Shown: positions 26,080 through 57,097, numbered from the stretch's first letter. The stretch: DNA of 57,404 bases from Deltaproteobacteria bacterium RIFCSPHIGHO2_02_FULL_43_33 (GCA_001798165.1 MGRL01000004.1:1922-59325); one strand, 5' to 3'. The notes: generated from the letters alone by a model not told the origin. Translations and numbers: made by a program.

Positions 26080-26166
26080 TAGAAGTTTGTAGCTTGCCCA
26101 TTTATGGGCGTCTTTAAAAAAGCCGATAAATCGGCAGGCTACATATATTTAAGGAGGATAAGGGGA

Positions 26167-27309
26167 ATGAAGGTATCATTATTAAATCTTAAGCTCCAGT
26201 ATCAGGGCATAAGAGAAGAGGTGTTAAAAGAGATTGAAAAGGTTTGCGATAATCAGTCATTTATACTTGGGGAAAATGTTGCTGGGCTGGAAAAGGAGAT
26301 AGCTCAGTATTGCAATACAAAATATGCTGTTGGCGTCGCCTCCGGAACAGACGCCATATTATTGCCGCTTATGGCTGTCGGCATCGGCGCCGGAGACAGG
26401 GTTATTACAACGCCGTATACATTCTTTGCCACAACAGGCTCTATTGTGCGGCTGAATGCAGTTCCGGTTTTTGTTGATATAGAACCGGATACATATAATA
26501 TTGACCCGAACAAATTGGAGTATATTATAAAAAAACAGACTGCGGCGCAAAGGGCGCGGCTCAAGGCCATTATCCCTGTTCATCTTTACGGCCAGTGCGC
26601 TGAAATGGAGCCAATTCTAAAAATAAGCAAGAAACATAAACTCACTGTGATTGAAGATGCGGCACAAACCATTGGCGCAGAATATAAAGGGAAGAGGGCA
26701 GGCTCTATGGGTGATTTTGGGAGCCTTTCATTCTATCCTTCAAAGAATCTTGGCGGTTTTGGAGACGGCGGCATGGTGACTACGAATAGCGAAAAACTGG
26801 CGGAAAAGGTCAGAATCTTGAGGGTGCACGGGAGCAAGCCAAAATACTATCATAAGTTTGTAGGCATAAACAGCAGGCTGGATGAGATACAGGCTGCGGT
26901 ATTAAGGATAAAATTAAAACATCTCGCAACATGGGAAAATAATAGAATGGCAGGAGCGGAGAGATATAACAAACTCTTTCAGGATGTAAGTCTTCCGAAC
27001 GCAGTTTCTCTTCCGGCAGCACGGCCATATAATCGCCATGTGTTCAATCAATATATTATCAGGGTTAAAAAACGGGATGCCTTAAGAGAGTATCTTGCCA
27101 AAGAATGCATAGGCACAGAAATATATTATCCTGTTCCATTGCACTTGCAAGAGTGTTTCAGATACCTTGGATATAAAAAAGGAGATTTTCCAGTATCTGA
27201 AAAGGCAGCCAAGGAGACTCTGGCGCTGCCTATCTATCCTGAACTTACACCGGAAGAGCAGGAATATGTAGTTAGCAAGATTGCTGAATTTTATAAGAAA
27301 ACAAGTTGA
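26167..27309 (+). CDS. DegT/DnrJ/EryC1/StrS-family PLP-dependent sugar aminotransferase
   Basis: GTDAILLPL, EDAAQTIGA and SFYPSKNLGGFGDGG (PLP lysine). AAGGAGG 9 nt before ATG 26167. Confidence 0.9.
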   Translation: MKVSLLNLKLQYQGIREEVLKEIEKVCDNQSFILGENVAGLEKEIAQYCNTKYAVGVASGTDAILLPLMAVGIGAGDRVITTPYTFFATTGSIVRLNAVPVFVDIEPDTYNIDPNKLEYIIKKQTAAQRARLKAIIPVHLYGQCAEMEPILKISKKHKLTVIEDAAQTIGAEYKGKRAGSMGDFGSLSFYPSKNLGGFGDGGMVTTNSEKLAEKVRILRVHGSKPKYYHKFVGINSRLDEIQAAVLRIKLKHLATWENNRMAGAERYNKLFQDVSLPNAVSLPAARPYNRHVFNQYIIRVKKRDALREYLAKECIGTEIYYPVPLHLQECFRYLGYKKGDFPVSEKAAKETLALPIYPELTPEEQEYVVSKIAEFYKKTS

Positions 27310-27414: not shown

Positions 27415-28593
27415 ATGAAAAAAAGGTACCTTGTCCCGCATATTCTACGCGATATTAATGAAAAGATGGTTTTCATCGGTGGTGCCAGGCAGGTTGGGAA
27501 GACGAGCCTGGCAAGGTATGTTGCCGAAAAATATTTCAAGTCATACGATTATCTGAACTGGGATGCGCGGGATGATAGAAAGAATATTTTACAGTCACAG
27601 TTTAAAGGTAATGCCGAGATTATCCTGTTCGATGAAATACACAAGTACAAGGACTGGAAGAGTTATCTCAAGGGGCAGTTTGATAAGCATAAAGATGATT
27701 TCAAGATTCTTGTGACTGGAAGCGCAAGGCTGGATGTATACAGGCGGGGTGGAGATTCGCTTATGGGAAGGTACTACTACTATCGCCTTCATCCCTTCAG
27801 CCTTGCGGAGTTTCTTGAAAAGGAGAATGAAATTGTTCCATTCAAAGGAATAGTCTTTCAGGAGTCAGGGAAGGAGACAAAAGAGACGTTAGAGGTTGCG
27901 TTGAAATTTGGCGGGTTCCCTGAGCCGATGCTTAAGCAGAGCGAAAAGGGACTGAGGAGATGGCATAACCAGAGGGTTGAAAGGTTGGTGAGGGAGGATA
28001 TTAGGGATTTGGAGAATATCAGGGAACTGTCGCTTCTTCAGGTCCTTGTTGACATTCTTCCCGGCAAGGTCGGCTCCCTTCTGTCCCTCAACTCTTTGAG
28101 GGAAGACCTTTCTGTGGCTCATAAGACTGTAGCACACTGGGTGGATATTCTTGAGAGGTTTTATTATCATTTCAGGATTTACCCCTTTCATCATAAAAAA
28201 ATAAGGTCTCTGAAAAAGGAGCCTAAGTTGTATCTATGGGATTGGTCTGAGGTTCCTGATGAAAGAGGCGCCAGACTGGAGAATATAGTCGCCTCCCACC
28301 TGCTCAAGATGTGTCATTTTCTGAATGATGTGGAGGGATTCAAGACCGACCTCCATTTTTTGAGGGATATAGAAGGACGGGAGGTTGATTTCCTAGTTAC
28401 TGAAAACGGTAAGCCGTGGTTTGCTGTGGAGGTTAAGTCCAATTCCAGAGAGGTCTCAAAAAACCTGCTCTATTTTGGAGACAGGTTGGATATTCCCTTT
28501 CTGTATCATGTCGTCTCTGAAGAGAATGTCGACATAAGGAAGGATAAAGTGAGGATTATAAGCCTGGATAGATTTATGGTTTCACTTGTGTAA
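27415..28593 (+). CDS. AAA-type ATPase with a C-terminal PD-(D/E)XK-like nuclease motif (COG1373/DUF4143-type architecture)
   Basis: Walker A GGARQVGKTS and Walker B IILFDEIH. C-terminal REVDFLV, about 11 aa, then AVEVKS (D...ExK). Confidence 0.8.
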   Translation: MKKRYLVPHILRDINEKMVFIGGARQVGKTSLARYVAEKYFKSYDYLNWDARDDRKNILQSQFKGNAEIILFDEIHKYKDWKSYLKGQFDKHKDDFKILVTGSARLDVYRRGGDSLMGRYYYYRLHPFSLAEFLEKENEIVPFKGIVFQESGKETKETLEVALKFGGFPEPMLKQSEKGLRRWHNQRVERLVREDIRDLENIRELSLLQVLVDILPGKVGSLLSLNSLREDLSVAHKTVAHWVDILERFYYHFRIYPFHHKKIRSLKKEPKLYLWDWSEVPDERGARLENIVASHLLKMCHFLNDVEGFKTDLHFLRDIEGREVDFLVTENGKPWFAVEVKSNSREVSKNLLYFGDRLDIPFLYHVVSEENVDIRKDKVRIISLDRFMVSLV

Positions 28594-28705: not shown

Positions 28706-28847
28706 CTTGGATATAAAAAAGGGCGATTTCCCAGTGTCTGAAAAGGCAGCCAAGGAAACTCTGGCACTGCCGATTTATCCCGAACTTACACCGGAAGAGC
28801 AGGAGTATGTGGTTAGCAAACTTGTTGAATTTTATAAGAAAATTTAA
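28706..28847 (+). pseudogene. orphan 3' fragment (last ~47 codons) of a DegT-family aminotransferase
   Basis: Aligns to 27166-27309 at roughly 90% identity by hand count. There is a 1-nt indel at its 5' edge and no start codon. Confidence 0.85.
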
Positions 28848-40559: not shown

Positions 40560-43421
40560 TTGATATCTCGACGCACCTTTCATCTATTAGTTCATCCGAT
40601 TGTCTTACCTATTTACCCTGCCATATTATTAATATTAATATATCATGAGGTTTTTATTTGCCGTACTGCAATTTTTACGCACGATACAGTCAATTGGTAT
40701 GCGAACTTCAATTATTTTGTGTCAAGCTTAGCTCAGGGTAGTTTGCCACTATGGGATCCGTATGCGTTTAGTGGAGCGCCATTCTATTTAAACGTCAATA
40801 TTGTAGGGGCATTGGACCCTACCGTGTTGCTTGCCGTACCTCTGATACGATTTTGGGATATCTCCATATTAGATATTTATAATATTCATTTTCTTGTTCG
40901 TTTATTTATATTTTATTTAGGATCGTATGCATTATTTTGTTATATCTCTCGTAATTATTGGGCTTCTTTGCTGGGTGCAATATTTACTTTATACACTAGT
41001 GCCCCCAATGCTTTTTGGCAGCATGGTTCAATGATTATGATAACATATGTTCCACTTATCATCCTGTTTTTACTTCAATTTGTGTCACCTGAAACTCCTA
41101 AAAAATCGAAAGGCCTGATTTTTATTGCGCTATGCTACCTTATTGGTATTTCATTCAACATATATTTGCCAAGCTATTTGTTAATGTATTTGAGTTTCAT
41201 TCTTATCTATCTTTTTATAGCGAGGTTTATAGGACTTAAATCTATTCGTGATATCGTTATTTCAGCAGGAGTATGGAAGTTGCTAATAGGAATTCTTGTG
41301 TTTTTTATTGTAGCGGGCCCCTTTATTGTTTCTACCTTTAAAATATTGCCAAGCCTTTCAGAAAATTTCAGTCTTACACGGTTTGATATACCTAATAACA
41401 GTAGTAATTCGGAGATAACAATTCATTCTTATCCGCTGAAATTAAATGAATCTGCTCCTTCCCGTTCTACTATATATAACTTGTTGAGTTTTTTGATACC
41501 TGGTACGGACACGGGATTTTTTGTGGAAAGCAGACCCCCCGGTTATACTGAGAATTTTTTGCCCTTTGCTGTGATTCCAGTAATGATAGTTTTCCTTTTT
41601 TTTAAACGGACGAATTCACATTACAAGGGATTATTTTTATTTGTTTTGATTATTACTGGCTTATATTGGCTTAGTCCAAATTTATTATACAGCCATATCT
41701 TGCGATATTTTCCGGGAGCCAGCACCATAAGACAAATGCATAATTTCTTGGGTTATTTTATTTTATCATTTGGTGCATTGTTAGCAATATGTTTATCAGA
41801 AGCCATAGCAGTAATATCTAATTCCAAGAATAGGCATAAGTTATCACCTATTGTTGTTGCTATATTTACACTGGCTTATATAGTTGCACTGTATGTATAT
41901 TGGCAACATATTAGAAATATGGAAATTGCTGGAACATTAGCAAGTCCAATATATAGATTGGCACTCCAAAATAATATTATTTCCAACGGATGGCAAGTAA
42001 TTATTATCTGCATGTTGATAACATTATATTTCTTTGCATCTTATAATTTTCGGATATACATTGCTATAACGATTGCGGGTATTATTATCTATGACTTGGT
42101 AGATTTTAATAGTAAATTTAAGACGTATACAATTCAGCCAAGCATTAGTATGAGTGAAGATTACATACACCATGATAGAGAATTCAAATATAATGAGATC
42201 CGGGTTCCTTTTGTTCCACGACATACAGTCTTTTGGGGTTATTTGCCATCACTTTATCGGATACCAACAGCCATTCCCGGCTATATGAATACATACATGT
42301 CGCTTACCCGCAGGGCTTATGATTTTATCCGTTTTACGTCCGCTGAAAGAAGTAAGATAGTTAGTGGTGTTGGTTCAAGGCGGTTTGGGTTTTTTGATAA
42401 GTATATCATGGCTAAAAATAGCAGAGATGCGTTAAATTTAGTTGCTGGAATGCCTAAGGAAAGCCTGCACGATGTAATAGTGCTTGAAGAAGACCCTATT
42501 CAAATAGTTTCAAAGCTCAAAGCTGTAGAACGCGTTGATAGAGATTCAAATTCTCCTGCTTTGCAAACGTTATCACAAATTCGTGAAGCTATGTTAAGTG
42601 GTAAAGGTCAGTATCTTGCGGATTTTTATGATAAAAGCGAATATATAAATTATAAAGACTATCCTCGTGCATCTGATGGATTTTTATATATTGCACTTTT
42701 AAGTAATCATCCGGCAAGAGATTGGCCCTGGGATAAAGAGCATATTGGATATTTTCATATTTTATTTGGAAATATTTATATTTCTTATTATTCGTTTATC
42801 CATGGATATCATACTAATCCTTCAATTAGGACTGACTTTAAAGAGGATAAAGTTTGCTATACGGATATTGAAGAATGGCAGATGAAGCATATTATGCCTG
42901 GTTTCTATGAACAGATATATAATAAATATCCTTACCAGTGCGATTTACAGAAAGTTGAAAGAGAATTGATAGTATCACCAGAACTGCAAGGTGCATTTGT
43001 TACAGATGATATAGGAAAACCAGAGAAGGATAATATAATTCCTGGCTTCACCGTTGTGAGTTTGGATCCGGCCAAGGTTTCACCAAGCCGTTCTCCTTAT
43101 GGCCGGGACGAGCCAACGGAAGTAATTGCCTTTGGACCAAACATGATTAGTTTTAAGGTACAAAACAGTAAACCTGGGCTATTTTACTATGCAGATTCCT
43201 ATTCCAGCGATTGGGAGGCAACGGTTTCCGGTTCTCCAGCTTATATTTTTAAAGCAAACTTTAATTATAAGGCGGTATTTGTTCCAGCTGGGAATCATAC
43301 CATAACTTTTTCATTCAACCCCAAGCTATATATTTTACTTTTTAAGATTTTCATTGTGGTTTCAATTTTACTGATGCCGGTTCCGGTTGTTGCTCTTTTA
43401 TTATACGCTAAGAAGAGGTAA
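40560..43421 (+). CDS. YfhO-like GT-C membrane protein paralogue 3
   Basis: THDTVNWYANF...GSLPLWDPYAFSGAPFY and C-terminal YADSYSSDWEATVSGSPAYIFKANFNYKAVFVPAGNHTITFSFNP. TTG start is uncertain. Confidence 0.65.
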   Translation: MISRRTFHLLVHPIVLPIYPAILLILIYHEVFICRTAIFTHDTVNWYANFNYFVSSLAQGSLPLWDPYAFSGAPFYLNVNIVGALDPTVLLAVPLIRFWDISILDIYNIHFLVRLFIFYLGSYALFCYISRNYWASLLGAIFTLYTSAPNAFWQHGSMIMITYVPLIILFLLQFVSPETPKKSKGLIFIALCYLIGISFNIYLPSYLLMYLSFILIYLFIARFIGLKSIRDIVISAGVWKLLIGILVFFIVAGPFIVSTFKILPSLSENFSLTRFDIPNNSSNSEITIHSYPLKLNESAPSRSTIYNLLSFLIPGTDTGFFVESRPPGYTENFLPFAVIPVMIVFLFFKRTNSHYKGLFLFVLIITGLYWLSPNLLYSHILRYFPGASTIRQMHNFLGYFILSFGALLAICLSEAIAVISNSKNRHKLSPIVVAIFTLAYIVALYVYWQHIRNMEIAGTLASPIYRLALQNNIISNGWQVIIICMLITLYFFASYNFRIYIAITIAGIIIYDLVDFNSKFKTYTIQPSISMSEDYIHHDREFKYNEIRVPFVPRHTVFWGYLPSLYRIPTAIPGYMNTYMSLTRRAYDFIRFTSAERSKIVSGVGSRRFGFFDKYIMAKNSRDALNLVAGMPKESLHDVIVLEEDPIQIVSKLKAVERVDRDSNSPALQTLSQIREAMLSGKGQYLADFYDKSEYINYKDYPRASDGFLYIALLSNHPARDWPWDKEHIGYFHILFGNIYISYYSFIHGYHTNPSIRTDFKEDKVCYTDIEEWQMKHIMPGFYEQIYNKYPYQCDLQKVERELIVSPELQGAFVTDDIGKPEKDNIIPGFTVVSLDPAKVSPSRSPYGRDEPTEVIAFGPNMISFKVQNSKPGLFYYADSYSSDWEATVSGSPAYIFKANFNYKAVFVPAGNHTITFSFNPKLYILLFKIFIVVSILLMPVPVVALLLYAKKR

Positions 43422-43431
43422 AGGTTCAAAA

Positions 43432-46269
43432 GTGAGGTCGCAGATTTTTTACCGTATTCTTCGTCATCCCATCGTTCTTCCAATTTATCCAGCCAGTGTA
43501 CTAATACTTTTATACCAGAATGTCTTTATAAAGCAAGAGGCTATCTTTACCCACGATACCATTCATTGGTATGCTAACTTCAACTATTTTATGCTCTGCC
43601 TGACACGCGGAATCCTTCCACTATGGGACCCATATAGTTGGTCTGGAGCGCCTTTCTATCTAAATCACAATGCTGTTGGGACGCTAGACCCAACTGTACT
43701 AACAATGATACCACTGATAAAGTATTGGAATGTTTCTGTATTGGACATTTACCACATACATTTTCTATTACGGTTGCTAGTTTTTTATATAGGTGCCTAT
43801 GCACTTTTTCGGTATATCTCTCGGAATGATTGGGCTGCCTTGATAGGGTCAACAATTGTTTTGTTTGTCATGGCGCCAAACTCGTTTTGGCAGCATGGTT
43901 CTATGCTAATTGTAACTTATGCACCATTGATAATACTTTTTCTGCTCAATCTAATCTCACCAAGCACTTCCTCTAAATCAAAAGGTTTGTTTTTTATAGC
44001 TTCATGTTATTTGTTTGGTCTCTCATTCAATATGTACCTCCCAAGTTATATAATTATCTATTTAAGCTTGATGTTTATTTATCTTTTTGTGAATAGAACA
44101 CTTAATATTTACAAACTTCGTAAAATAACAAGAGTTATAGGAATCTCTAATATACTTGCAGGAATACTTATATTCTTAATTATGGCTGGTCCATTTATTT
44201 ATTCTACGGTTAAGTTAATGTCAAAAGTTGATGAGAACTTTGCCTATGGTAGATATGCCCGTCTTGGAGAACCACCCACATCAGATACACTGATACATAC
44301 TGCGGAATTGTCTTTAACGGAGGATAGTTATAGAGATCGTTCAACATTTCATAATCTTTTAGCGATATTATTTCCTGGTCCAGACATAAGGTTTTTCATA
44401 GAAAGTGCTTTAGCACGTGAAAACTTTCTTTTTTTTGGGTTGATACCAATAATCCTTGTTTTTCTTTTTTTCAAACGCGCTCAATCACCAAATAAGGGAC
44501 TTTTTCTGTTTCTTATTATTGCTATTGGTTTATATATGTTCAGCCCTCCTTCTTGGTATAATAAAATATTGCAATACTATCCGACTGCCAGGACGATTAC
44601 GCAGTTGCATAACTTTTTAGGTTTTTTTATTTTATCATGGGGCGCTTTAATAGCTATTTGCTTTTCTACTGTTCTTGATATGATAACCCATAAAAGCAGA
44701 ACAGAGAGGGTTTCCTTAATCTGGCTTGCGATTTTGGCAATAGCTCAAATATTGGTAATTTTCTTATACTTCAGCTTTGTTCATACCGAACTAATAGAAC
44801 GTTCACTAAGCAATAATTTCTTAATATGGATACAAGAATCTATTGTAGCACATGGATGGTTGTTAATTATTTCATACTTTATAGTTGCGTTATTTTTGTT
44901 ACATAAATCTTCTTTGTTTCGATTTTTTCTTATAGTAGTTATGGTAGGACTTACATTCTATCAATTGGTAGAGTTTAATATTAACCTCCAACGTTATGTC
45001 ATCCAGCCAGGTGAGATTGCACGTACTGGGTATATCCATTATGACAGGGAATTTAGCTATAAACCAATACGTATTCCTTTTGTATCCAGGCATACTACCT
45101 TTTGGGGATTCCTCCCCTCCCTTTACCGTATTCCGGCAGCCATCCCGGCCTATTTTAATGACTATTTTGTTGTAGGTCGCCGAAGCTATGATTTTATTCG
45201 TTTCGTTTCTGCAGAACGACAGAAGATTGTTAGTGGCATCGGGGCAAGACGATTTGGTTTTTTTGATAAGTTTACTGTGGCTAAAGACAGTATCCACGCG
45301 CTATCTCTTATGAGCCGCATGCCTACAGATATGTTGCATGAGACTTTGGTGTTGGAGGATGATATTGCAAAAGTTTTCCCTCAGGCAAGGGCAATTGAGC
45401 GTGTCGATGTTGATACAATACCGATCTCCGCTGATGTAGAGCGTGGTAGTAGTCAATATTTAGCTGATTTCTATGACCGTATGGAAAGAATTGATTACAA
45501 AACTCCAAATACACGTAAGGTGAAAGGTTATTTGGAGATTGACATCCCACAGCAGCATCCTATTTTGGATTGGCCATGGGATATAAAGCATATTGGATAT
45601 TTTCAAATTATGTTTGGCCCTTTTCAATCAGTGTCTTCATACAATCCCATGAGGTACTATCCTAACCCAGGTATTCGTACCAATGTTGGCAGAGACTACA
45701 TTTGTTATATTGACTTTCAGGAATGGTTGGTAAAACACGCTATGCCTGGTTTCTATGAACCGATATACAATAAATATCCTTATCAGTGCGATTTACAAAA
45801 AGTTGACAAAGATTTGATAGTATCACCAGAACTGCAAGGTGCCTTTGTTACAGATGACATAGGAGGACCAGAGAAGGATAATATAATCCCCGGGTTTACC
45901 GTTGTGAGCTTAGATCCGGCCAGGGTTTCACCAAACCGTTCTCCATATGGCCGGGACGAGCCAACGGAAGTGATTGCGTTTGGGCCTAACATGATTAGTT
46001 TTAGGGTACAAAACAGCAAGCCGGGACTGTTTTATTATGCTGATTCATATTCCAAAGATTGGAAGGCAACAGTTTCCGGTTCCCCTACCTATATCTTTAA
46101 AGCAAACTTTAATTATAAGGCGGTATTTGTTCCGGCTGGGAATCATACCATAACTTTTTCATTCAACCCCAAGCTATATATTTTACTTTTTAAGATTTTC
46201 ATTGTGGTTTCAATTTTACTGATGCCTGTTCCGATTGTCGCCCTTTTATATTCTAAGGAAAGAAAATAA
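43432..46269 (+). CDS. YfhO-like GT-C membrane protein paralogue 4 (tandem duplicate of paralogue 3)
   Basis: Collinear with paralogue 3. GTG 43432 is preferred (VRSQIFYRILRHPIVLPIYP parallels MISRRTFHLLVHPIVLPIYP). The ORF opens at 43387. Confidence 0.65.
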   Translation: MRSQIFYRILRHPIVLPIYPASVLILLYQNVFIKQEAIFTHDTIHWYANFNYFMLCLTRGILPLWDPYSWSGAPFYLNHNAVGTLDPTVLTMIPLIKYWNVSVLDIYHIHFLLRLLVFYIGAYALFRYISRNDWAALIGSTIVLFVMAPNSFWQHGSMLIVTYAPLIILFLLNLISPSTSSKSKGLFFIASCYLFGLSFNMYLPSYIIIYLSLMFIYLFVNRTLNIYKLRKITRVIGISNILAGILIFLIMAGPFIYSTVKLMSKVDENFAYGRYARLGEPPTSDTLIHTAELSLTEDSYRDRSTFHNLLAILFPGPDIRFFIESALARENFLFFGLIPIILVFLFFKRAQSPNKGLFLFLIIAIGLYMFSPPSWYNKILQYYPTARTITQLHNFLGFFILSWGALIAICFSTVLDMITHKSRTERVSLIWLAILAIAQILVIFLYFSFVHTELIERSLSNNFLIWIQESIVAHGWLLIISYFIVALFLLHKSSLFRFFLIVVMVGLTFYQLVEFNINLQRYVIQPGEIARTGYIHYDREFSYKPIRIPFVSRHTTFWGFLPSLYRIPAAIPAYFNDYFVVGRRSYDFIRFVSAERQKIVSGIGARRFGFFDKFTVAKDSIHALSLMSRMPTDMLHETLVLEDDIAKVFPQARAIERVDVDTIPISADVERGSSQYLADFYDRMERIDYKTPNTRKVKGYLEIDIPQQHPILDWPWDIKHIGYFQIMFGPFQSVSSYNPMRYYPNPGIRTNVGRDYICYIDFQEWLVKHAMPGFYEPIYNKYPYQCDLQKVDKDLIVSPELQGAFVTDDIGGPEKDNIIPGFTVVSLDPARVSPNRSPYGRDEPTEVIAFGPNMISFRVQNSKPGLFYYADSYSKDWKATVSGSPTYIFKANFNYKAVFVPAGNHTITFSFNPKLYILLFKIFIVVSILLMPVPIVALLYSKERK

Positions 46270-50049: not shown

Positions 50050-50580
50050 ATGAATTATTTTACAATCTTGACAACGGGTATCATAATTTTTGTTATTTGT
50101 TTGGTTTTACATATAGTTATCTGGCGGTGGTGGCATCCCAAAAGAAGGGTAATTGCATTGTTCCTGCTTTTTATCATATTGCCGCTTCTTTTTATAATTG
50201 GATATGTTGGATTGGAGCGGCTTGTTGTTGTGCCGTCTGTTTTATCTTTTACCATGGCAGGCTGGCTATCAGTTTATCTGTTCCATTTTGCCCTTGCCTC
50301 CGCATATATTTTAAGCTATCCAGCCATAGAGGCAGTATCTCCTTCGCTTGCGATAGTATTGATGCTCGGTGCTTCTAATTCGCAGGGTATAGCGCATAAG
50401 GATTTGCTGCCTCTTTTTGATGATGAAACGGTTTTAGAGCCTCGCATTAAGGATTTGATGGAGGCCGGGCTGGTAACGGCATCGGATAATTATTTTACCG
50501 TTACCCCCCGCGGCATGACTTTGGTTCAGTGTTTCATATTGTTGCGACGCGTGCTGGGTTTGCCCATAGGAAAGGGTTGA
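50050..50580 (+). CDS. membrane protein (about 4 TM helices) with a C-terminal winged-helix-like domain, unknown function
   Basis: Hydrophobic N-terminal two-thirds, then LEPRIKDLMEAGLVTASDNYFTVTPRGMTLV. Confidence 0.5.
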   Translation: MNYFTILTTGIIIFVICLVLHIVIWRWWHPKRRVIALFLLFIILPLLFIIGYVGLERLVVVPSVLSFTMAGWLSVYLFHFALASAYILSYPAIEAVSPSLAIVLMLGASNSQGIAHKDLLPLFDDETVLEPRIKDLMEAGLVTASDNYFTVTPRGMTLVQCFILLRRVLGLPIGKG

Positions 50581-50581
50581 T

Positions 50582-51136
50582 ATGCTGCAATTAAACTACA
50601 TGACATTGCTTGCAACTACGCCCGTATTGATATTTATCTTGCATGTGGCGGCTGCAAGGATTTTTATACGGCTGCCGGGGCAGGCTGTTGTCATTATTTG
50701 TTCTCTTGTCGGTTTTGTGCCGATGGCGGCAGCAGCATGGGCTGTTTATTTTCACCATACAACGGCAACTCGGCAGGAATTGATATGGGCAGGAATGTAT
50801 GGGTTTATTGTTTATGCTGCCTTGGCGTACAGCTATTTTCATGTGTTTAATATGAGTGAAACTGCCCGACGTATCAGGATTCTCTATGAGATATATACAG
50901 CAAAACAATTAAAGGCATCGGAAATAGCCTCGTTATACAATGCGCATGATATGTTGCATAGCCGTCTTGAAAGGCTTTTGTCCATGAAGCAAGTTAAACT
51001 TTCCGATGATAAGTATTTGCTTGACCGACGGTCGCTTTATTATGCGGCAAGGATAATTGCATGGTGGGGGAATATTTTGGGGCTGCCTTTTTCACAGACA
51101 ATATACGATAAACTGAAAAGGGCTCATGCTCTATGA
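50582..51136 (+). CDS. membrane protein (about 3-4 TM helices) with a C-terminal winged-helix-like domain, unknown function
   Basis: Same architecture as the previous gene. RRIRILYEIYTAKQLKASEIASLY...RLLSMKQVKLSDDKYLL. Confidence 0.5.
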   Translation: MLQLNYMTLLATTPVLIFILHVAAARIFIRLPGQAVVIICSLVGFVPMAAAAWAVYFHHTTATRQELIWAGMYGFIVYAALAYSYFHVFNMSETARRIRILYEIYTAKQLKASEIASLYNAHDMLHSRLERLLSMKQVKLSDDKYLLDRRSLYYAARIIAWWGNILGLPFSQTIYDKLKRAHAL

Positions 51137-51420
51137 TGTTTGACAGAAAAAGACTTTTGCTGTTGCCCTTACATAACCGCATTCATGATTTGGATATTTC
51201 CGTCATAAAGCCTCTTCAAAAAAACTCTTTTTTCCACCCTTCTTTCAAGACGATCGCAGACAATATTAAAAACGCCAGGAAGGCCGGCAAGTCTGTAATT
51301 ATGATGCTCGGCGGCCATGTCATACGTTCGGGTGTTCAGAGATATATTATTGATATGATGGAAAAAGGCCATATAACATGCCTTGCAATGAATGGGGAAA
51401 GAGATGTGGGTAAGGATTAG
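51133..51420 (+). pseudogene. orphan 5' fragment (first 87 codons) of the gene found intact at 52747-53697
   Basis: About 84% aa identity to the intact copy over 87 aa. Homology ends at about 51394 and a stop follows 8 codons later. ATGA-type overlap with the upstream gene stop. Confidence 0.85.
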
Positions 51421-51493
51421 CAGCCCATGACTTTTATGCAGCATAGCGCATTTAGGTCTTGACTTTTATGAAGTTTAGTGCAAAATAGTCTGC

Positions 51494-52615
51494 ATGAAGC
51501 GCAGTATAATGGATAAGATAAAGATAGACCTCGATCAAAAGATCGTTCTTTTGAGCGGTCCCCGACAGGTGGGCAAGACGCATTTGTCCAAAGCGATTTA
51601 TCCGGACAACTCTGAATATTTTAATATGGACAGTGTGGAGCATCGCCTGCTTATCCAAAAACAGGCATGGCGCCGTGATTGCGACCTGGTGATATTTGAC
51701 GAACTGCATAAGGTAAGAAAGTGGAAGAACTGGATTAAAGGAATTTATGATACCGAAGGGGTGAGGCCGCGCCTTCTTGTGACTGGATCATCCCGCCTTG
51801 ATGTCTACCGGAAATGGGGGGATTCACTGGCGGGCAGATTTTATTCCTACCGGTTGCATCCTTTTTCCGTGGCTGAGGTCAAAGAAAAGTATACGGCTGA
51901 TACGGCTCTTGAACATATCATGAGGTTTGGGGGATTTCCAGAGCCGTTTCTTAAAGGGAGTGAGGAAGAAGCCAAACGCTGGCGGCGCTCACATGTTGAC
52001 CGCATCCTGCGCGAGGATTTGCTGGATATTGCATCGGTCAGGAACCTCAGAAGCGTAGAAACTCTGGTAGAATTGCTTCGCAATTCCGTTGGGAGTACAG
52101 TCTCCTATGAATCACTGTCCAGAGACCTGCAGGTTTCTCCTCATACGGTGAAACAGTGGATTAGCATACTGGAGAACCTTTATATTATTTTTGTGGTAAC
52201 GCCTTATCACCGCAATATCGCCAGGAGTTTGATCAGGCAGCCAAAAATATATTTTTATGATACAGGTTTTGTGAAGGAAGATGATGGGGCAAGGTTTGAG
52301 AATGCCGTTGCCTGCGCCCTTCTGAAGCGGCTCCATTTTCTTGAGGATACGGCAGGGGAGAAGTGCGCGCTTCATTACCTAAGGGACAAGGAAAAAAGGG
52401 AGATTGATTTTCTGACGGTGCAGGATGGGAGACCGGAATGGCTTATTGAAGCCAAACTGGCGGATATTGACACTAATTCTCTTAAACACTTTTCAGGTTT
52501 TTTTGATAGAGAGACAAAACATATTCTTCTTGTAAAGAATCTGAAGAGGGAACTGTTTCTCGGTGGCATCCATGTCAAAAAAGCTGGCAGCTGGCTTCAG
52601 AGTCTTGAGGCATAA
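51494..52615 (+). CDS. AAA-type ATPase with a C-terminal PD-(D/E)XK-like motif, paralogue of 27415-28593
   Basis: Walker A SGPRQVGKTH, Walker B LVIFDELH, and C-terminal REIDFLT...WLIEAKL. Collinear with the first copy throughout. Confidence 0.8.
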   Translation: MKRSIMDKIKIDLDQKIVLLSGPRQVGKTHLSKAIYPDNSEYFNMDSVEHRLLIQKQAWRRDCDLVIFDELHKVRKWKNWIKGIYDTEGVRPRLLVTGSSRLDVYRKWGDSLAGRFYSYRLHPFSVAEVKEKYTADTALEHIMRFGGFPEPFLKGSEEEAKRWRRSHVDRILREDLLDIASVRNLRSVETLVELLRNSVGSTVSYESLSRDLQVSPHTVKQWISILENLYIIFVVTPYHRNIARSLIRQPKIYFYDTGFVKEDDGARFENAVACALLKRLHFLEDTAGEKCALHYLRDKEKREIDFLTVQDGRPEWLIEAKLADIDTNSLKHFSGFFDRETKHILLVKNLKRELFLGGIHVKKAGSWLQSLEA

Positions 52616-52641
52616 AATTTATGTCTGAAAGGGACTTTCGT

Positions 52642-52668
52642 CCCCCCGATAGAACCTTCGAGGGCAGG
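52642..52668 (-). repeat. hairpin core of the CCTGCCCTCGA..TATCGGGGG family (reverse orientation)
   Basis: The rc reads CCTGCCCTCGAAGGTTCTATCGGGGGG; compare 7797-7823. Confidence 0.8.
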
Positions 52669-52746
52669 TTTATCTTGCGGATATATTCGATTCAGGCAGC
52701 GCTGTGGACAAACTATATACAATAAGAAAAGAAGGACTCATATAAT

Positions 52747-53697
52747 ATGTTTTTTGATAGAAAAAGACTTTTGCTTTTGCCCTTAAATAAGCGCATCCAT
52801 GATTTAAATATCTCTGCAATAAAGGAGCTGCAGGAAAATTCCTTTTCTCATCCATCCTTCAATGTAATTGCAGACAATATCAAAAATGCCAAAAAAGGCG
52901 GCAAGTCTGTAATCATGATGCTCGGCGGACATGTCATTCGTTCTGGTGTTCAGAGATATATTATTGATATGATGGAACAGGGGTATATAACATGCCTTGC
53001 AATGAACGGTTCCGGGGTTATACACGATTTTGAGCTGGCCCTGATTGGCGCTACTACAGAGAGTGTTGCCCGCTATATACGGGAAGGGCAGTTTGGATTG
53101 TGGAAGGAGACTGGACAGATAAATGATATTGTTAATCAGGCTTATAAAAACGGCGGGACTGGAATGGGAGAGGTGGTAGGCAAGGCTATTTATGAAGGTG
53201 ATTTTCCCGATAATGGCATCAGTCTTTTGGCGGCGTGTTATCGACTGAACATACCTGCAACTATTCATGTTGGTATTGGATACGATATTATCCATGAACA
53301 TCCAAACTTTGACGGGGCCGCGGCTGGAGCCACATCATATATTGATTTCTTAAAATTTACAGAGGTTGTTTCAAACCTTGAAAATGGCGTGGTTATGAAT
53401 TTCGGCAGCGCTGTCATGGCACCTGAGGTGTTTTTGAAGGCATTGAGTATGGCGAGAAATGTTGCTCATCAGGAGGGTAAGGTTATTAAACATTTTACTA
53501 CTTTGGTTTGCGACCTGCATAATCTTCCTGATGATTGCAGCAAGGAACCTTGCAAAGATAACGAGGCGTATTATTTCAGGCCGTGGAAGACTATGCTTGC
53601 AAGGACAGTTGCTGACGGCGGAGAAAGTTTTTATATAAAAGGGAAACATGCGGATACCATACCTGCCTTGTGGACTGCCTTATATAAAATGCATTAA
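52747..53697 (+). CDS. conserved protein of unknown function; weak resemblance to deoxyhypusine-synthase-like Rossmann proteins
   Basis: MMLGGHVIRSGVQRYIIDMMEQGYITCLAMNGSGVIHDFELAL loosely fits the DHS-like G-x-x-SG...TTGA-x-x-HD pattern. Function not established. Confidence 0.45.
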   Translation: MFFDRKRLLLLPLNKRIHDLNISAIKELQENSFSHPSFNVIADNIKNAKKGGKSVIMMLGGHVIRSGVQRYIIDMMEQGYITCLAMNGSGVIHDFELALIGATTESVARYIREGQFGLWKETGQINDIVNQAYKNGGTGMGEVVGKAIYEGDFPDNGISLLAACYRLNIPATIHVGIGYDIIHEHPNFDGAAAGATSYIDFLKFTEVVSNLENGVVMNFGSAVMAPEVFLKALSMARNVAHQEGKVIKHFTTLVCDLHNLPDDCSKEPCKDNEAYYFRPWKTMLARTVADGGESFYIKGKHADTIPALWTALYKMH

Positions 53698-53713
53698 AAA
53701 CTTGCATTTTATT

Positions 53714-53891
53714 GATTACACAGATTTTGTAAAACGATTACACCGATTAAAGACTTGGTTTATCTGTGTAATCTACGCTTTTTAATCTGTGTTAATCATG
53801 TGGCAATTATTTATTACGCTACATATAAAAGGCTGTTGAAAAAGTCATCAACAGCCTGATTACACAGATAGTAAAAGCAGATTACACAGAT
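53714..53891. repeat. cluster of six GATTACACAGAT motifs (forward 53714, 53736 variant, 53858, 53880; reverse 53762, 53785 variant)
   Basis: Direct reading. The last copy contains the GxxExxY start codon (53890). Confidence 0.85.
53827..53860 (+). repeat. 34-nt hairpin direct repeat, upstream copy (AAAAGGCTGTTGAAAAAGTCATCAACAGCCTGAT)
   Basis: 31 of 34 positions identical to 54257-54290. Confidence 0.85.
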
Positions 53892-54258
53892 GAAGAATAG
53901 AGACCCGCTTACTGAACGAATAATAGCTTGTTGTTATAGGGTTCACTCGGAATTGGGACCAGGATTTAATGAAAAGATATATCATACAGCTTTAAAGTTT
54001 GCCCTTAATCAAGAATGTTTAAAATTTGAGGCAGAAAAACGATTTGAGGTTTATTACAATACTAACAAAGTTGGTTATCTGGTTATGGATTTGGTTGTTG
54101 AAAACGAGGCCATAGTTGAAATTAAAGCATTAGCAGGTAATATTCCTGATGTCTTCAAATATCAGGTGCTTTCTTATTTAAAAGCATCTAATCTAAAGGT
54201 TGGGTTATTAGTCAATTTTGGCAATAAGAGTTGCCACGTAAAAAGGCTTGTTTTTTAA
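53890..54258 (+). CDS. GxxExxY-family small protein (PD-(D/E)XK-like)
   Basis: GFNEKIY gives GxxExxY. DLVVENEAIVEIKA gives D...ExK. Family-typical size of 122 aa. Confidence 0.85.
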   Translation: MKNRDPLTERIIACCYRVHSELGPGFNEKIYHTALKFALNQECLKFEAEKRFEVYYNTNKVGYLVMDLVVENEAIVEIKALAGNIPDVFKYQVLSYLKASNLKVGLLVNFGNKSCHVKRLVF

Positions 54259-54290
54259 AAGGCTGTTGAAAAAAACACCAACAGCCTGAT
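54257..54290 (+). repeat. 34-nt hairpin direct repeat, downstream copy
   Basis: AAAAGGCTGTTGAAAAAAACACCAACAGCCTGAT; overlaps the GxxExxY stop codon. Confidence 0.85.
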
Positions 54291-54302
54291 ATCGGAGATA
54301 TT

Positions 54303-54779
54303 ATGAAGATTTTAGAATTGGAAAAACTGGCAAAAAGGATTGAAGAGTTGAAATCTAAAGGCAAGAAGATTGTCTTGTGCCATGGTTGCTTTGATTTGAT
54401 GCACCCGGGGCATATCAAATATTTTCAGGCATCAAAAAAGATGGGAGATATATTGGTAGTCACCGTAAGCCCTGATATCTACGTGGATAAGGGAGACGGC
54501 CGCCCTGTTTACAATCAAACACTGAGGGCCGAATCTATCGCTGCTCTGGAGTGCGTTGATTATGTGGCAATTAACAAATGGCCTACGGCGGTTGAAACTT
54601 TACGGCTGTTGAGGCCCAATATCTATGTGAAAGGACAGGAATTTGAAAATAAGACGGATAAGACCGGCAAACTCCAGCAAGAGCAGGCGGCTTTAGTTGA
54701 AATCGGCGCAGAGATGCGCTATACTCACGAAATAGTTTTTTCATCAACAAAGCTGTTGAATCAATATTTTAAAACATAA
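54303..54779 (+). CDS. stand-alone cytidylyltransferase-fold enzyme, RfaE/HldE domain II-like (heptose-1-phosphate adenylyltransferase candidate)
   Basis: VLCHGCFDLMHPGHIKYF (intact HxGH), GRPVYNQTLRAE, VDYVAI, IYVKGQEF. Confidence 0.7.
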   Translation: MKILELEKLAKRIEELKSKGKKIVLCHGCFDLMHPGHIKYFQASKKMGDILVVTVSPDIYVDKGDGRPVYNQTLRAESIAALECVDYVAINKWPTAVETLRLLRPNIYVKGQEFENKTDKTGKLQQEQAALVEIGAEMRYTHEIVFSSTKLLNQYFKT

Positions 54780-54794: not shown

Positions 54795-55142
54795 ATGAGA
54801 CGATTTGCCGAATGGAATGCAATGAACGGAAGAGAAAAAAGCATCTTGGTGCGATGTTTAAATGCGGTTAAGAAAGTTGACCCTGAAGCTGATATAATTC
54901 TTTACGGATCGAGGGCGCGTGGCGAGGCGGGTAGCGAATCTGATTATGATCTTCTTGTTTTGGTCAATGATTTTGCGAGTCTTGAAAAAGAAGATCTTTT
55001 TCGCCGTCAGTTATTCCCAATAGAGATTGAAACAGGGTGTGTTTTTACTGTTATTCTTTACAGCCGTTATGATTGGGAGACGCCACTTTATAGGGCAATG
55101 CCGTTTCACCAAAATATCGAAAAGGATGGTGTTATTTTATAG
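54795..55142 (+). CDS. minimal nucleotidyltransferase (MNT) antitoxin-like protein
   Basis: ILYGSRARGEAGSESDYDLLVLV. Confidence 0.8.
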   Translation: MRRFAEWNAMNGREKSILVRCLNAVKKVDPEADIILYGSRARGEAGSESDYDLLVLVNDFASLEKEDLFRRQLFPIEIETGCVFTVILYSRYDWETPLYRAMPFHQNIEKDGVIL

Positions 55143-55174
55143 GGATAGAAATTAGAACTTTAGTTTTTTATCGG

Positions 55175-55543
55175 TTGCAACGCGCTCATGAATCGTTGGA
55201 AGAGGCTGTCATCCTTTTGAAACAAGGATACACAAATACCTTTGTCAACAGGCTTTATTATGCCTGTTTCTATGTCGTTTCCGCCCTGTTGCTTACCAAA
55301 GGCCTTTCTGCTGCAAAGCACAGTGGGGTAAGGGCGCTTTTTCATCAGGATTTTGTTAAACCCGGCACAGTAGATATGGAATTAGGGCGGTTCTACGACA
55401 AGGTGTTTGATAACCGCCAAAAAGGCGATTATGCAGATTTGGTTAGATTTGATCAAAGCGAGGTGTCTCCATGGTTTGAAGAGGCCGCAAGATTTGTTGA
55501 TAGTGTGGAAAAGTTGGTCAGGAAAGAATTATCAGAAGAATGA
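55175..55543 (+). CDS. HEPN domain protein
   Basis: RLYYACFYVVSALLL...KHSGVRALF...NRQKGDYAD. The frame is open back to the MNT stop, so the true (possibly non-ATG) start may lie upstream of TTG 55175. Confidence 0.7.
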   Translation: MQRAHESLEEAVILLKQGYTNTFVNRLYYACFYVVSALLLTKGLSAAKHSGVRALFHQDFVKPGTVDMELGRFYDKVFDNRQKGDYADLVRFDQSEVSPWFEEAARFVDSVEKLVRKELSEE

Positions 55544-55567: not shown

Positions 55568-57097
55568 ATGGAAACTGCTATTATAAATAAAATATTAACA
55601 TTGGACGAGGTGGTTGACAAAGTAAAGGCCTTGAAGCAGGCTGGACAAGTTATTGTGCAGAGTCACGGAGTCTTTGACCTTATCCATCCCGGCATAATAA
55701 AACATCTTAATCATGCCAAGAAACTGGGAGATGTCTTAATAGTATCGGTCATTAAAGACAAGGATGTGCATCGGGGGCCTGGCAGACCGATTTTCCCTGA
55801 GGCATTCAGGGCGGAAAATGTGGCATCTCTTGAACAGGTTGATTATGTTTGTCTTGTGGACAATGAGATGCCGTTTGAATGTATTAAGATGACACAGCCC
55901 GATATCTTTGCAAAGGGGCAGGCCGCTCACGAAAAAGACAGAAAGATACATGAAAGGTTGTTTAAGGAAGAAAAGAAATTTTATTCCGATAAATGCCGTA
56001 TCATTGAAACTGAGGGCTTTTCCTTCAGTTCATCTCATATTATCAATAATTTTTTGGATATATACCCTGAAGAGACCAAGAATTTTTTAAGCGATTTTAA
56101 GAAAAAATATAATTTTTCAGATATTGCAGACAAGATCAATGCCTTAAAAGATTTAAAGGTACTGGTTATCGGAGACGGAATTATTGATGAGTATCATTAC
56201 TGCGATTCTTTGGGAAAATCTTCCAAGGCAAATCTTGTGGTCAGCAAATATCTGTCTCATGAGGTCTTCGCAGGCGGGACTTTTGCGGTTGCCAATCACC
56301 TTGCCGGATTGTGTGATACGGTTCAGATGGTGTCGCTTTTGGGCAGGGAAGATTCACGGGAAGATTTCATAGCAAAAAATCTCAAGCCGAATGTCAAGGC
56401 AAAATTTTTCTACCGGGATGATGGGCCTTCCGTTATAAAAAAAAGATATATCCATGAGTATTTAAATCAAAAATTGTTTGAGGTCTGCTATCTCAACGAT
56501 GATTTCATTGGTAAAGAATGTGAGGCAGAAGTTATTGATTATCTTGTATCGGAAATTCCTAAATATGATATGGTTATGGTTTCCAATTTCGGACACGGTT
56601 TTATTACCAAAGATATAATAGAGGCAATTAAGGCGCATGCAAAAATATTTGCAGTTAATGCCCAAACTAACGCTGCCAATGTGGGTTATAATTTAATAAC
56701 AAGATACAATGATCCTAATTATGTTTGTCTTGATGAAAGCGAGTTGAGATTGTCGGCGCAGGAAAAACATGCGGATATTGAGCAGGTTACAAAAAAGATT
56801 GCGAATGACGTTAAGGCGGATTGCCTCATTGTAACCCTTGGAAAGAAAGGGTCGTTCGGCGTGAACCACAACAGCGTCAACAGAACTCCCATCTTTTCTC
56901 ATAAAGTGGTTGATACAGTCGGCGCAGGCGACGCTTTTTTTGCATATACTGCCCCATGTTATGCCAAAGGCATGCCGCTGGATATGCTCTCTTTTGTAGG
57001 CAATGCCGTAGGGGCTATAGCCGTTCAGATTGTCTGTAATAAAAAATCGGTTGAAAAGTTTGAATTGTTGGAATTTATAAATACCATCCTAAAGTAA
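55568..57097 (+). CDS. fusion of a cytidylyltransferase-like domain (degenerate HxGH) with a PfkB-family sugar kinase; HldE-like, with domain order reversed relative to E. coli HldE
   Basis: N-terminal domain SHGVFDLIHPGIIKHL (HPGI instead of HxGH). Kinase part VLVIGDGIIDEY and DTVGAGDAFFAY. Confidence 0.7.
   Translation: METAIINKILTLDEVVDKVKALKQAGQVIVQSHGVFDLIHPGIIKHLNHAKKLGDVLIVSVIKDKDVHRGPGRPIFPEAFRAENVASLEQVDYVCLVDNEMPFECIKMTQPDIFAKGQAAHEKDRKIHERLFKEEKKFYSDKCRIIETEGFSFSSSHIINNFLDIYPEETKNFLSDFKKKYNFSDIADKINALKDLKVLVIGDGIIDEYHYCDSLGKSSKANLVVSKYLSHEVFAGGTFAVANHLAGLCDTVQMVSLLGREDSREDFIAKNLKPNVKAKFFYRDDGPSVIKKRYIHEYLNQKLFEVCYLNDDFIGKECEAEVIDYLVSEIPKYDMVMVSNFGHGFITKDIIEAIKAHAKIFAVNAQTNAANVGYNLITRYNDPNYVCLDESELRLSAQEKHADIEQVTKKIANDVKADCLIVTLGKKGSFGVNHNSVNRTPIFSHKVVDTVGAGDAFFAYTAPCYAKGMPLDMLSFVGNAVGAIAVQIVCNKKSVEKFELLEFINTILK

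Follow-up and report, generated by a model that had tools for sequence, protein, structure and literature searches.

Organization of the locus

The subject of this work is a gene for an ATPase-nuclease and the duplicated gene ends that flank it, which lie in a 57,404-nucleotide (nt) stretch of one strand of Deltaproteobacteria bacterium RIFCSPHIGHO2_02_FULL_43_33 (GCA_001798165.1, MGRL01000004.1:1922-59325). This whole stretch is referred to below as the window. The ATPase gene is situated between a displaced 5' fragment of a GSU2086-family gene, here called G, and an intact copy of G, the first gene of a conserved block of G, a cytidylyltransferase gene and a kinase gene. The gene immediately upstream of the fragment is called X, and the one before it W. 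An initial annotation, made from the sequence alone, had described the fragment as encoding the first 87 amino acids (aa) of the intact protein, had noted its ATGA-type coupling to the upstream gene and the position of the ATPase gene between the two copies, and had pointed to another cassette of the same logic elsewhere in the window. All of these observations are borne out by our analysis, and the features are collected in Table 1.

The two copies of the 5' end of G form a direct repeat of 302 nt, which aligns locally without gaps and is identical at 243 of 302 positions (80%). The insert between the repeat copies measures 1312 nt and holds a single open reading frame (ORF) of at least 100 aa, that of the ATPase. 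The repeat begins 39 nt 5' of the ATG. Translated in the frame of X, the 39 nt before the intact G read QTIYNKKRRTHII, compared with QTIYDKLKRAHAL* at the end of the resident X, and the intact copy thus carries a remnant of another X allele. Within the repeat the longest identical runs are 33 and 22 nt, the 33-nt run falling in conserved coding sequence. The frame of the fragment departs from that of G after codon 87 and reaches a stop at 51418-51420. Because the same arrangement is seen in contigs of ENA, JGI and NCBI assemblies, it is not an assembly artefact.

Table 1. Features of the ATPase locus and of the first cassette (positions are those of the window)
Feature	Position	Strand	Description
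Gene X	50582..51136	+	Resident upstream neighbour, 184 aa, no Pfam family; TGA 51134-51136 overlaps the ATG of the fragment (ATGA)
Left repeat copy	51094..51395	+	Last 39 nt of X and codons 1-87 of the GSU2086-family gene
Displaced 5' fragment	51133..51420	+	ORF of 95 aa: 87 codons of G and an out-of-frame tail of 8 codons (GERDVGKD*)
Junction tail	51396..51426		31 nt of unassigned origin between the G fragment and the cassette leader; putative mark of an old illegitimate joint
Cassette leader	51427..51490	+	Two tandem 32-nt units, 51427-51458 (ATGACTTTTATGCAGCATAGCGCATTTAGGTC) and 51459-51490 (TTGACTTTTATGAAGTTTAGTGCAAAATAGTC)
ATPase-nuclease	51494..52615	+	AAA_14 + DUF4143, ATPase/PD-(D/E)XK nuclease, 373 aa; PADLOC candidate PDC-S01; putative cargo
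Trailer	52616..52707		92 nt, lineage-specific, with hairpin GGGAC-TTTC-GTCCC at ~52631-52644; not conserved in other lineages
Right repeat copy	52708..53009	+	39-nt remnant of a foreign X-type 3' end (52708-52746) and codons 1-87 of the functional G
Intact gene G	52747..53697	+	GSU2086 family, 316 aa; NF052581, 382 bits
Aminotransferase of the first cassette	26104..27309	+	Intact, DegT/DnrJ/EryC1-type; 3' end 27166-27301 is the left repeat copy
ATPase of the first cassette	27415..28593	+	Paralogous AAA_14 + DUF4143 protein, 392 aa, 42% identical to the second ATPase
Displaced 3' fragment of the aminotransferase gene	28706..28842	+	89% identical to 27166-27301, one indel

Divergence of the two gene copies

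Over the 87 shared codons the fragment and the intact G differ by 14 aa and 46 nt, distributed 8/6/32 by codon position (dN 0.09, dS 0.94 and their ratio, omega, 0.10). The excess at third positions, 32 of 46, is significant against an expectation of one third (P = 7e-7), and the 302-nt repeat is free of indels. Since the differences are mostly synonymous, the copies are diverged alleles from different genomes and not a decayed in-place duplication. It could be argued that a direct repeat of one contiguous segment flanking an insert is just what an in-place tandem duplication of the X/G boundary would leave, with one copy decaying and the ATPase gene inserted between the copies or trapped there by chance. 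However, with one copy decaying neutrally about 45% of the differences would be expected at third positions, whereas the observed share is 70% (P = 7e-4). Speaking against it as well are the low omega at so high a dS, the lack of indels and the different nearest relatives of the two copies: the fragment is closer to locus L159 and the intact copy to L081 (87%). We regard such a duplication as highly improbable. In a tree of the 261-nt 5' region, no placement of the fragments has a bootstrap value above 37%.

Occupied and empty sites in related genomes

To place the locus among its relatives, homologues of GSU2086 were gathered and 80 loci were fetched from metagenomes, 48 of them informative in having at least 1.5 kb of upstream sequence. 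All comparison sequences are metagenome contigs or metagenome-assembled genomes (MAGs), and the relatives carry the labels Nitrospirae or Thermodesulfovibrionales. The usual order downstream of G is the cytidylyltransferase gene and then the cytidylyltransferase-kinase gene. The ATPase gene stands upstream of G at just one of the 48 informative loci (L079), the other 47 being without the cassette. Empty sites, with W, X and G adjacent, are found at L081 (G 90% identical at the aa level), L083, L084 and L159. As empty X-G sites exist and one of 48 G loci is occupied, the comparison supports the view that the ATPase gene is an insertion at the X-G site. The initial annotation had held two patterns to be incompatible with its reading, namely random substitutions between recent in-genome duplicates and a syntenic arrangement conserved without empty sites; the substitutions are synonymous-biased and empty sites exist, so neither pattern is present.

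One of the empty sites is L159, a 1056-nt JGI contig that is collinear (85%) with positions 50392-51395 of the window and has the same overlapping stop and start of X and G. Its G runs intact through the point at which the fragment in the window is truncated. Over the first 261 nt, it has 31 mismatches to the window fragment and 54 to the window intact copy, and by this closeness the fragment belongs to the W-X lineage. An early stop and a 101-aa 'deoxyhypusine synthase' call at L159 are false and are produced by the adapter-like end of the contig (1029-1056; AGATCGGAAGAGCGTCGTGTAGGGAAAGAGT), which we take to be an Illumina adapter in a public metagenome assembly.

Other arrangements were also found. 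At L013 the order is W-X-ATPase-G, with the cassette present and the fragment absent. The L013 cassette begins with the same 9 nt (ATGACTTTT) as G does at the empty sites L083 and L084, and this 9-nt overlap appears to be microhomology at that joint. We also considered whether ATGACTTTT in the leader might be a fossil of an earlier start of G; this was rejected, as it belongs to a 32-nt unit that is conserved in unrelated contexts. At L008, L015 and L079 the fragment, the ATPase gene and G stand behind an unrelated 749-aa gene, and at L080 G is without the cassette. Several further candidates were set aside. L164, at first sight a second truncation type, is a full-length G with a frameshift, and L081 is only 86% identical to L160 and does not qualify as its exact empty partner. 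Protein allele P0006, which would combine fragment aa 1-77 with intact aa 78-260 and might thus be taken for an ancestral uninterrupted allele, was not used, since it is without a DNA record and may be a protein-level assembly chimera; its place was taken by L159. P0002, likewise without a DNA record, was not used either.

Synonymous divergence separates the cassette from its surroundings. Between the window and L013, dS is 0.32 for the ATPase gene, compared with 1.8 for W, 1.9 for X, 1.0 for G and 1.4 and 1.3 for the downstream genes. Between the window and L008, it is 0.71 for the ATPase gene and 0.59 for codons 1-87 of G, and 1.06 for the remainder of G, 1.6 and 1.55 for the downstream genes and 1.23 for the fragment. 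Judged by these values, the cassette appears to be younger than its surroundings, the functional 5' end of G behaving like the cassette and the fragment like the resident backbone. The proposal of the initial annotation that the fragment is the original resident 5' end is supported by both this backbone-like dS and the collinearity of L159.

An old truncation joint and later crossovers

An identical truncation point, followed by the tail NGERDV(G/D)KD* (the asterisk denotes the stop), is found in the window, in L008/L015, in L160 and in L162. At least four lineages and at least seven protein alleles share it. The tail reads NGERDVDKD* in L008 and NGERDVGKD* in the window. The 31-nt junction tail is common to L008/L015 and is missing in L013 and in cassettes of other host contexts. 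These observations show that the truncation joint in G is a single old event common to several lineages, inherited or transferred and not made anew here. The idea of two independent events put forward in the initial annotation thus holds for the two cassettes of the window but does not extend to the G junction.

Superimposed on the shared joint is a pattern of mosaicism. The N-terminal parts of the fragment alleles are composite, P0247 being P0248 over aa 1-47 and P0245 over aa 48-95, and P0243-5 agree in their distal part with the intact allele P0010. At the nucleotide level, L008 and L160 show 49 mismatches in nt 4-177 of the fragment and then only four in ~1950 nt that span what remains of the fragment together with tail, leader, ATPase gene, trailer and 560 nt of G, which places the breakpoint at fragment nt 177-235. 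Their upstream genes are unrelated (the 749-aa gene in L008, W and X in L160). In L162 the cassette is the same and the breakpoint follows fragment nt 246. A breakpoint inside G, at nt ~370-420, is seen between L079 and the cassette-free L080: the first 370 nt of G have 62 mismatches and nothing is shared upstream, while from G nt ~420 onward the two are ~99% identical for 5 kb. The distance from the fragment to its upstream gene varies among backgrounds, from overlap to 36, 180 and 279 nt. Both the L160 type and the L162 type are represented in two assemblies. A gradient of divergence along the fragments of the window and L008 was looked for as a sign of chimerism and was not seen, whereas the closer trio of L008, L160 and L162 did show breakpoints. 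Taken together, these comparisons show homologous crossovers that fall at differing positions within the fragment and within G and join near-identical cassettes to different upstream backgrounds.

The position of these breakpoints bears on an insertion of the Campbell type, in which a circle carrying the cassette and one X/G boundary would integrate by a single crossover that duplicates the 302 nt, excision restoring the circle. Such a step predicts a direct repeat of heterologous alleles, for 5' and 3' gene ends alike, and the 302-nt repeat does span the X/G boundary contiguously in both copies, with identical runs of 33 and 22 nt in which a crossover could take place. Yet, had there been one crossover at nt 177-235, L008 and L160 should differ in their right-hand copies past this point, and these copies show no difference up to at least G nt 561. 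Since these copies are identical past the crossover, a double-crossover exchange, and not integration of a circle, is indicated for this pair, and the single-crossover explanation of the L008/L160 difference is ruled out. For the origin of the locus as a whole, a Campbell-type event is in our opinion unlikely: neither a circular junction nor a cassette-only contig was seen, and the 31-nt foreign tail would need a prior illegitimate step in any case.

The same data bear on the possibility that selection maintains the 95-aa fragment as a small protein, an N-terminal portion of the GSU2086 fold that travels with the ATPase in a two-gene unit. Its ORF is open and of the same length in at least seven alleles, omega between the window and L008 fragments is 0.12, 13 of the 18 differences in the junction-proximal third are at third positions, and in the window the fragment is translationally coupled to X. 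However, the distal parts of the fragments are mosaic and match intact G alleles of the same populations, by which the low omega is explained. Within the eight-codon tail the only changes seen, G to D and D to V, are both non-synonymous. Moreover, L013 and most loci of the family have the cassette without such an ORF, the fragment differs between loci in its upstream context and spacing, and a truncated third of a Rossmann-type domain would be unlikely to fold alone. We therefore rate selection for such a protein as very unlikely to account for the locus. Under recombination between alleles, exchanges would repeatedly overwrite the fragment with the sequence of functional alleles, and because of this overwriting the stub could stay open and synonymous-biased without selection acting on the stub itself.

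The ATPase-nuclease and its leader

The ATPase of the locus has Pfam matches to AAA_14 (E 5e-23) and DUF4143 (E 4e-31). For the two ATPases of the window, the scores are 82 and 94.8 bits against AAA_14 (cut-off 27) and 108 and 93.5 bits against DUF4143 (cut-off 28.1). Both proteins also match the PADLOC profiles of PDC-S01 over their full length (PDLC04789, E 2.3e-56, residues 2-350; PDLC04790, E 2.4e-52), and by this strong profile match they resemble PDC-S01, a single-gene phage-defence candidate of PADLOC with the AAA_14 + DUF4143 architecture (COG1373). PDC-S01 has been described as a very abundant candidate, transferred across domains and experimentally unvalidated, in which an ATPase is fused to a PD-(D/E)XK domain (PMC12988326), and DUF4143 itself has been classed as PD-(D/E)XK (PMC3424549). 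The residues of Walker A, Walker B and the nuclease motif E-x-D...E-x-K (G22, G27, K28, T29, D69, E70, E303, D305, E319 and K321) show no or almost no variation across 120 homologues, and both window proteins have them. A sequence search gave no PDB match for the structure of the ATPase. No relatives of its subfamily were found in viral contigs, and distant members of the family occur on 375 plasmids.

Directly upstream of the ATPase gene lies a leader made of two tandem 32-nt units, each holding an ATGCA..TGCA(T) palindrome. When the 130 nt upstream of 26 close homologues were aligned, the consensus of the unit was TGACTTTTATGCAG-N5-TGCA...GTC. The leader is conserved before every member of the subfamily, whatever the host context, and L031 has three units. 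The motif has two matches 32 nt apart, compared with 0.11 expected by chance in the whole window; a weak match with three mismatches at 23668-23690, distant from both ATPases, is probably due to chance. Just before the ATPase ATG there is a promoter-like site, TTGACT (51459-51464) and CAAAAT (51481-51486) separated by 16 nt. At the other end, sequence conservation among the cassettes stops at the stop codon of the ATPase gene.

The combination of leader and ORF is found in MAGs labelled Nitrospirae, Nitrospinota, Desulfonema, Melioribacter, Omnitrophota and Planctomycetes, at 63-92% aa identity and with the reservation that such taxon labels may be imperfect. In large contrast, homologues of G drop to ~70% identity already within relatives labelled Nitrospirae. 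In other words, the ATPase gene and its leader of ~70-100 nt appear to be a compact, horizontally spread single-gene cassette of ~1.2 kb, with its own promoter-like region and no mobility gene.

The 1312-nt insert holds no tyrosine or serine recombinase, its only ORF of at least 100 aa being that of the ATPase. There is no transposase in the cassette, and the repeats, being long, variable in length and non-identical, are unlike a fixed-length target duplication. The two ends and the various insertions have no attachment (att) core in common, the repeats being ends of different host genes. Nor is there an integron attC-like 3' site, the conserved element being a 5' leader with a promoter-like site, and Rfam gave no matches anywhere in the window. 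At the conserved limits of the cassette, an inverted match (51426-51439 and 52610-52623, 12 of 14 positions; CATGACTTTTATGC and GCATAAAATTTATG) was considered as a pair of terminal inverted repeats and rejected as probably fortuitous: four internal chance pairs are at least as good, and the sequence after the stop codon is unconserved elsewhere.

Footprint of the ATPase family and the first cassette of the window

The initial annotation had proposed that other copies of the family elsewhere in the genome be checked for flanking gene-end repeats. A set of 49 homologue loci from species-representative genomes was examined by comparing the 2.5 kb on the left with the 2.5 kb on the right on the same strand (E < 1e-4). 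Flanking direct repeats were present at 16 of the 49 loci and at 6 of 76 controls (Fisher P = 6e-4), the controls being pseudo-cassettes placed 3.5 kb away within these loci and not matched insertions. After one non-independent and three dubious loci were dropped, the enrichment remained (P = 0.016). About two thirds of the family loci have no flanking repeat. Where present, the repeats are ends of differing host genes, 37-313 nt long, and share no sequence. At L024, an Omnitrophota MAG, a 313-nt repeat (95%) comprises the start of a 110-aa membrane protein gene that follows a GT2 gene, the same 5' type as G in the window. Repeats of 3' ends derive from a GT1 gene (L017), a 377-aa gene (L022), another AAA ATPase (L033), NAD kinase (L078) and NAD synthase (L063). 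Both window cassettes, together with L024, L022, L017, L029, L033, L078 and L063, have a displaced partial copy of a neighbouring gene across the acquired DNA while the neighbour itself is intact. Pooled over the loci other than the window, the differences between copies fall 17/17/46 by codon position (third-position excess P = 1e-5). All this suggests that the gene-end footprint is common around the ATPase family. The enrichment may, however, only mark recent acquisition, and no role for the protein follows from it.

At L022, three copies of the 3' end of the 377-aa gene were observed, at 5083-5211 in the gene, at 6598-6713 after the ATPase cassette and at 7336-7416 after the next gene, of 122 aa. 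By eye, the repeated gene sequence is HicB-like. The triple copies suggest that a single gene end received insertions one after another and that a displaced copy was left behind each time.

The first cassette of the window (Table 1) has a layout that is the mirror image of the second, with a 3' gene end displaced instead of a 5' end. Its insert measures 1404 nt, and the two copies of the aminotransferase gene end differ 3/4/13 by codon position (omega ~0.09). Among the fetched loci, no close relatives of the first-cassette ATPase were found.

It is tempting to ask whether the ATPase-nuclease promotes its own movement, cutting or stimulating recombination at cassette-free alleles or at its own borders so that repair copies the cassette together with gene ends; in a variant of this idea, the tandem leader units might be the recognition sites. 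In favour of this are the invariance of the nuclease and ATPase motifs, the enrichment of flanking repeats around the family relative to shifted controls, the polymorphism of the site for presence and absence, a dS of the ATPase gene and of codons 1-87 of G that lies below that of the backbone in a manner resembling a co-conversion tract, and the sharp and conserved left end of the cassette, which is formed by palindrome-bearing repeats. Nevertheless, classical homing makes no duplications, the G junction is one inherited event and not a recurrent one, and the lack of repeats at about two thirds of the family loci and of a fragment at L013, where the cassette occupies the same locus, is difficult to reconcile with such activity. 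The host genes vary as well, the repeats offer no common target sequence, and a GxxExxY gene insert in the window is also flanked by repeats without any ATPase-nuclease. With controls that are not matched insertions, the enrichment may again reflect nothing but recent acquisitions. On balance, self-promoted mobility seems improbable to us. The same can be said of its most elaborate form, a selfish, integrase-less 'homing defence gene', in which PDC-S01 would bind the palindromic leader units, nick or cut nearby DNA or cassette-free alleles and thereby stimulate recombination that copies the cassette, with a piece of the neighbouring gene, into the corresponding loci of other genomes: this is a doubtful proposition, although, if it were true, the duplicated gene ends would be built-in homology arms that allow spread without harm to the host gene. 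Of the mobility or homing suggested in the initial annotation, mobility is upheld by the empty sites and the repeats at 16 of 49 loci; nothing points to homing, and recombination by the host fits better.

Proposed mechanism

We consider it probable that the locus was shaped by host recombination, one illegitimate joint combined with homologous exchange, as proposed for the 'orphans' of Rhs and type VI secretion system (T6SS) loci, with the ATPase-nuclease as cargo. The comparisons above show that the cassette is foreign and polymorphic at this site, that the two gene copies are heterologous alleles, that several lineages share one joint in G and that both arms contain homologous crossovers; the steps that led to the joint are reconstructed as follows. 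According to this scheme, a resident X-G locus would have recombined with foreign DNA bearing the cassette in front of another G allele. At one end there would have been a homologous crossover within G, and at the other an illegitimate joint at codon 87/88 of the resident G. A complete new 5' end of G would thus come with the incoming DNA, while the resident 5' end, coupled to X, would stay behind as a stub. A linear donor replacing the resident stretch between the joint and the crossover would yield X-G(1-87)-cassette-x'-G'(1..c)-G(c..end), where c is the crossover point, and selection would retain only products in which the neighbouring gene is intact. The mirror layout of the first cassette would follow if the homologous anchor were on the left, in the aminotransferase gene, and the illegitimate joint inside its 3' end. 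Since the formation of the joint, ordinary homologous recombination has acted on the two repeat copies. The ATPase-nuclease would then most likely be cargo, a candidate defence gene that is not the agent of its own movement.

Several points weigh against this interpretation. The original illegitimate event is reconstructed from its presumed products: no donor and no exact before-and-after pair was found, and the nearest empty sites are 85-86% identical. The data do not distinguish the direction of the later exchanges, that is, whether cassettes moved into new backgrounds or upstream regions were swapped. All seven alleles keep an open fragment ORF, and with 13 of 18 differences at third positions in its junction-proximal third, selection on the 95-aa product is possible. 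A contribution of the protein to the process could lie behind the excess of flanking repeats. In addition, strain-chimeric metagenome assembly at conserved stretches is a caveat for the crossovers, and the loci of the family test are not phylogenetically independent.

Neighbouring inserts and repeats

The region downstream of G has further small genes. The GxxExxY / PDDEXK_3 gene (53890-54258) is bracketed by a 48-nt direct repeat (53826-53873 and 54256-54303, 83%; hairpin GGCTGTTGA...TCAACAGCC). It is missing in L008 and L013, where G and the cytidylyltransferase gene abut or overlap, and is found in the same place in L083 (89% at the aa level). Being absent from L008 and L013 and bracketed by repeats, it appears to be another small insert, one without an ATPase. 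A nucleotidyltransferase (MNT) / HEPN pair (54795-55543) lies between the cytidylyltransferase gene (54303-54779) and the gene for a 509-aa cytidylyltransferase-kinase (55568-57097). As the cytidylyltransferase and kinase genes are adjacent in L008 and L013, this pair is likely to be another insertion in the window lineage; no direct repeats flanking it were found. In contigs identical to the window, the kinase gene is followed by a 23S_rRNA_IVP (four-helix-bundle) gene (L001, 14385-14714). The locus is thus rich in small accessory-type genes: two PDC-S01, GxxExxY, HEPN/MNT and IVP.

A segment of ~146 nt found 3' of G in the window (53681-53827; GATTACAC-like words) is present between X and the fragment in L162 (1488-1633), and a similar one is found at 17646-17765 of L008, at a great distance downstream. 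It resembles an intergenic element dispersed among these loci. Elsewhere in the window, a G+C-rich repeat of 45 nt occurs four times (7782-7826, 11414-11458, 19281-19325 and 23897-23941), with 62-82% identity and the pattern GTCAGGGGTCA...GCCTGCCC(C/T)CGA...ATCGGGGGTCA. Several of these copies are near ORF boundaries, and they may represent an element like the repetitive extragenic palindromic (REP) sequences. Two adjacent genes for YfhO-like membrane proteins of ~950 aa each (40560-43421 and 43387-46269) share segments of 300 nt and shorter at 73-88% identity (42853-43152 and 45701-46000, among others), and the pair can be seen as tandem paralogues, possibly with gene conversion.

Comparison with known systems and implications

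Displaced gene ends are known from several other settings. In Escherichia coli, the element e14 and phage 21 insert in icd and bring a replacement gene end that differs mainly at synonymous positions, the original end persisting as a pseudogene fragment beyond the element. As in this case, the functional gene ends at our loci lie in the incoming segment and the old end is displaced across the insert. Unlike a prophage with its integrase and att core, the insert studied here is 1.3 kb long with one ORF and no integrase, and the repeats of 37-313 nt are without a common core. Free-standing homing endonuclease genes of phages, which spread by 'intronless homing', insert cleanly and with co-conversion. 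They resemble the cassette in that a nuclease gene lies between conserved genes, its presence is polymorphic and the adjacent flank has been exchanged. The differences are the duplicated gene ends seen here and the fact that most of the evidence points to host recombination.

The closest parallel is provided by the orphan gene ends of Rhs, contact-dependent inhibition (CDI) and T6SS effector-immunity arrays, for which an origin by homology-facilitated illegitimate recombination was proposed (PMC5361080); that paper cites de Vries & Wackernagel 2002 and Prudhomme et al. 2002. In both settings there would be a homologous anchor and an illegitimate joint, a new gene end is supplied while the old one persists as a fragment, and arrays can build up, as exemplified by L022 with its three 3'-end copies. 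In the orphan systems, however, the payload is the exchanged end itself, a toxin tip with its immunity gene, whereas here it is an unrelated single gene. The host genes here are sugar-pathway or housekeeping genes that are merely kept intact, both 5' and 3' ends are hit, and ordinary homologous exchange later makes renewed use of the duplicated arms. In the literature that could be searched on DUF4143, COG1373, PDC-S01 and the footprint itself, we found no description of the movement of PDC-S01 genes, of the tandem leader units or of the gene-end duplicates. Although the mechanism is of a known kind, its link to PDC-S01, the unit of leader and ORF and the reuse of gene ends as arms appear to be undescribed in that literature.

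In bacteria and archaea, single-gene candidates of the PDC-S01 type rank with the most abundant accessory genes. They are usually without an adjoining mobility gene, which raises the question of how they move. The present locus offers a readable record in this respect, with a cassette of promoter and ORF, an old joint, empty sites and later crossovers inside the duplicated gene ends. It also illustrates that a stub can stay open and look 'conserved' through overwriting, which calls for caution with dN/dS calls on small ORFs. If the pattern is general, gene-end duplicates with a synonymous bias could mark recent, integrase-independent acquisitions and separate the donor and resident parts of mosaic genes.

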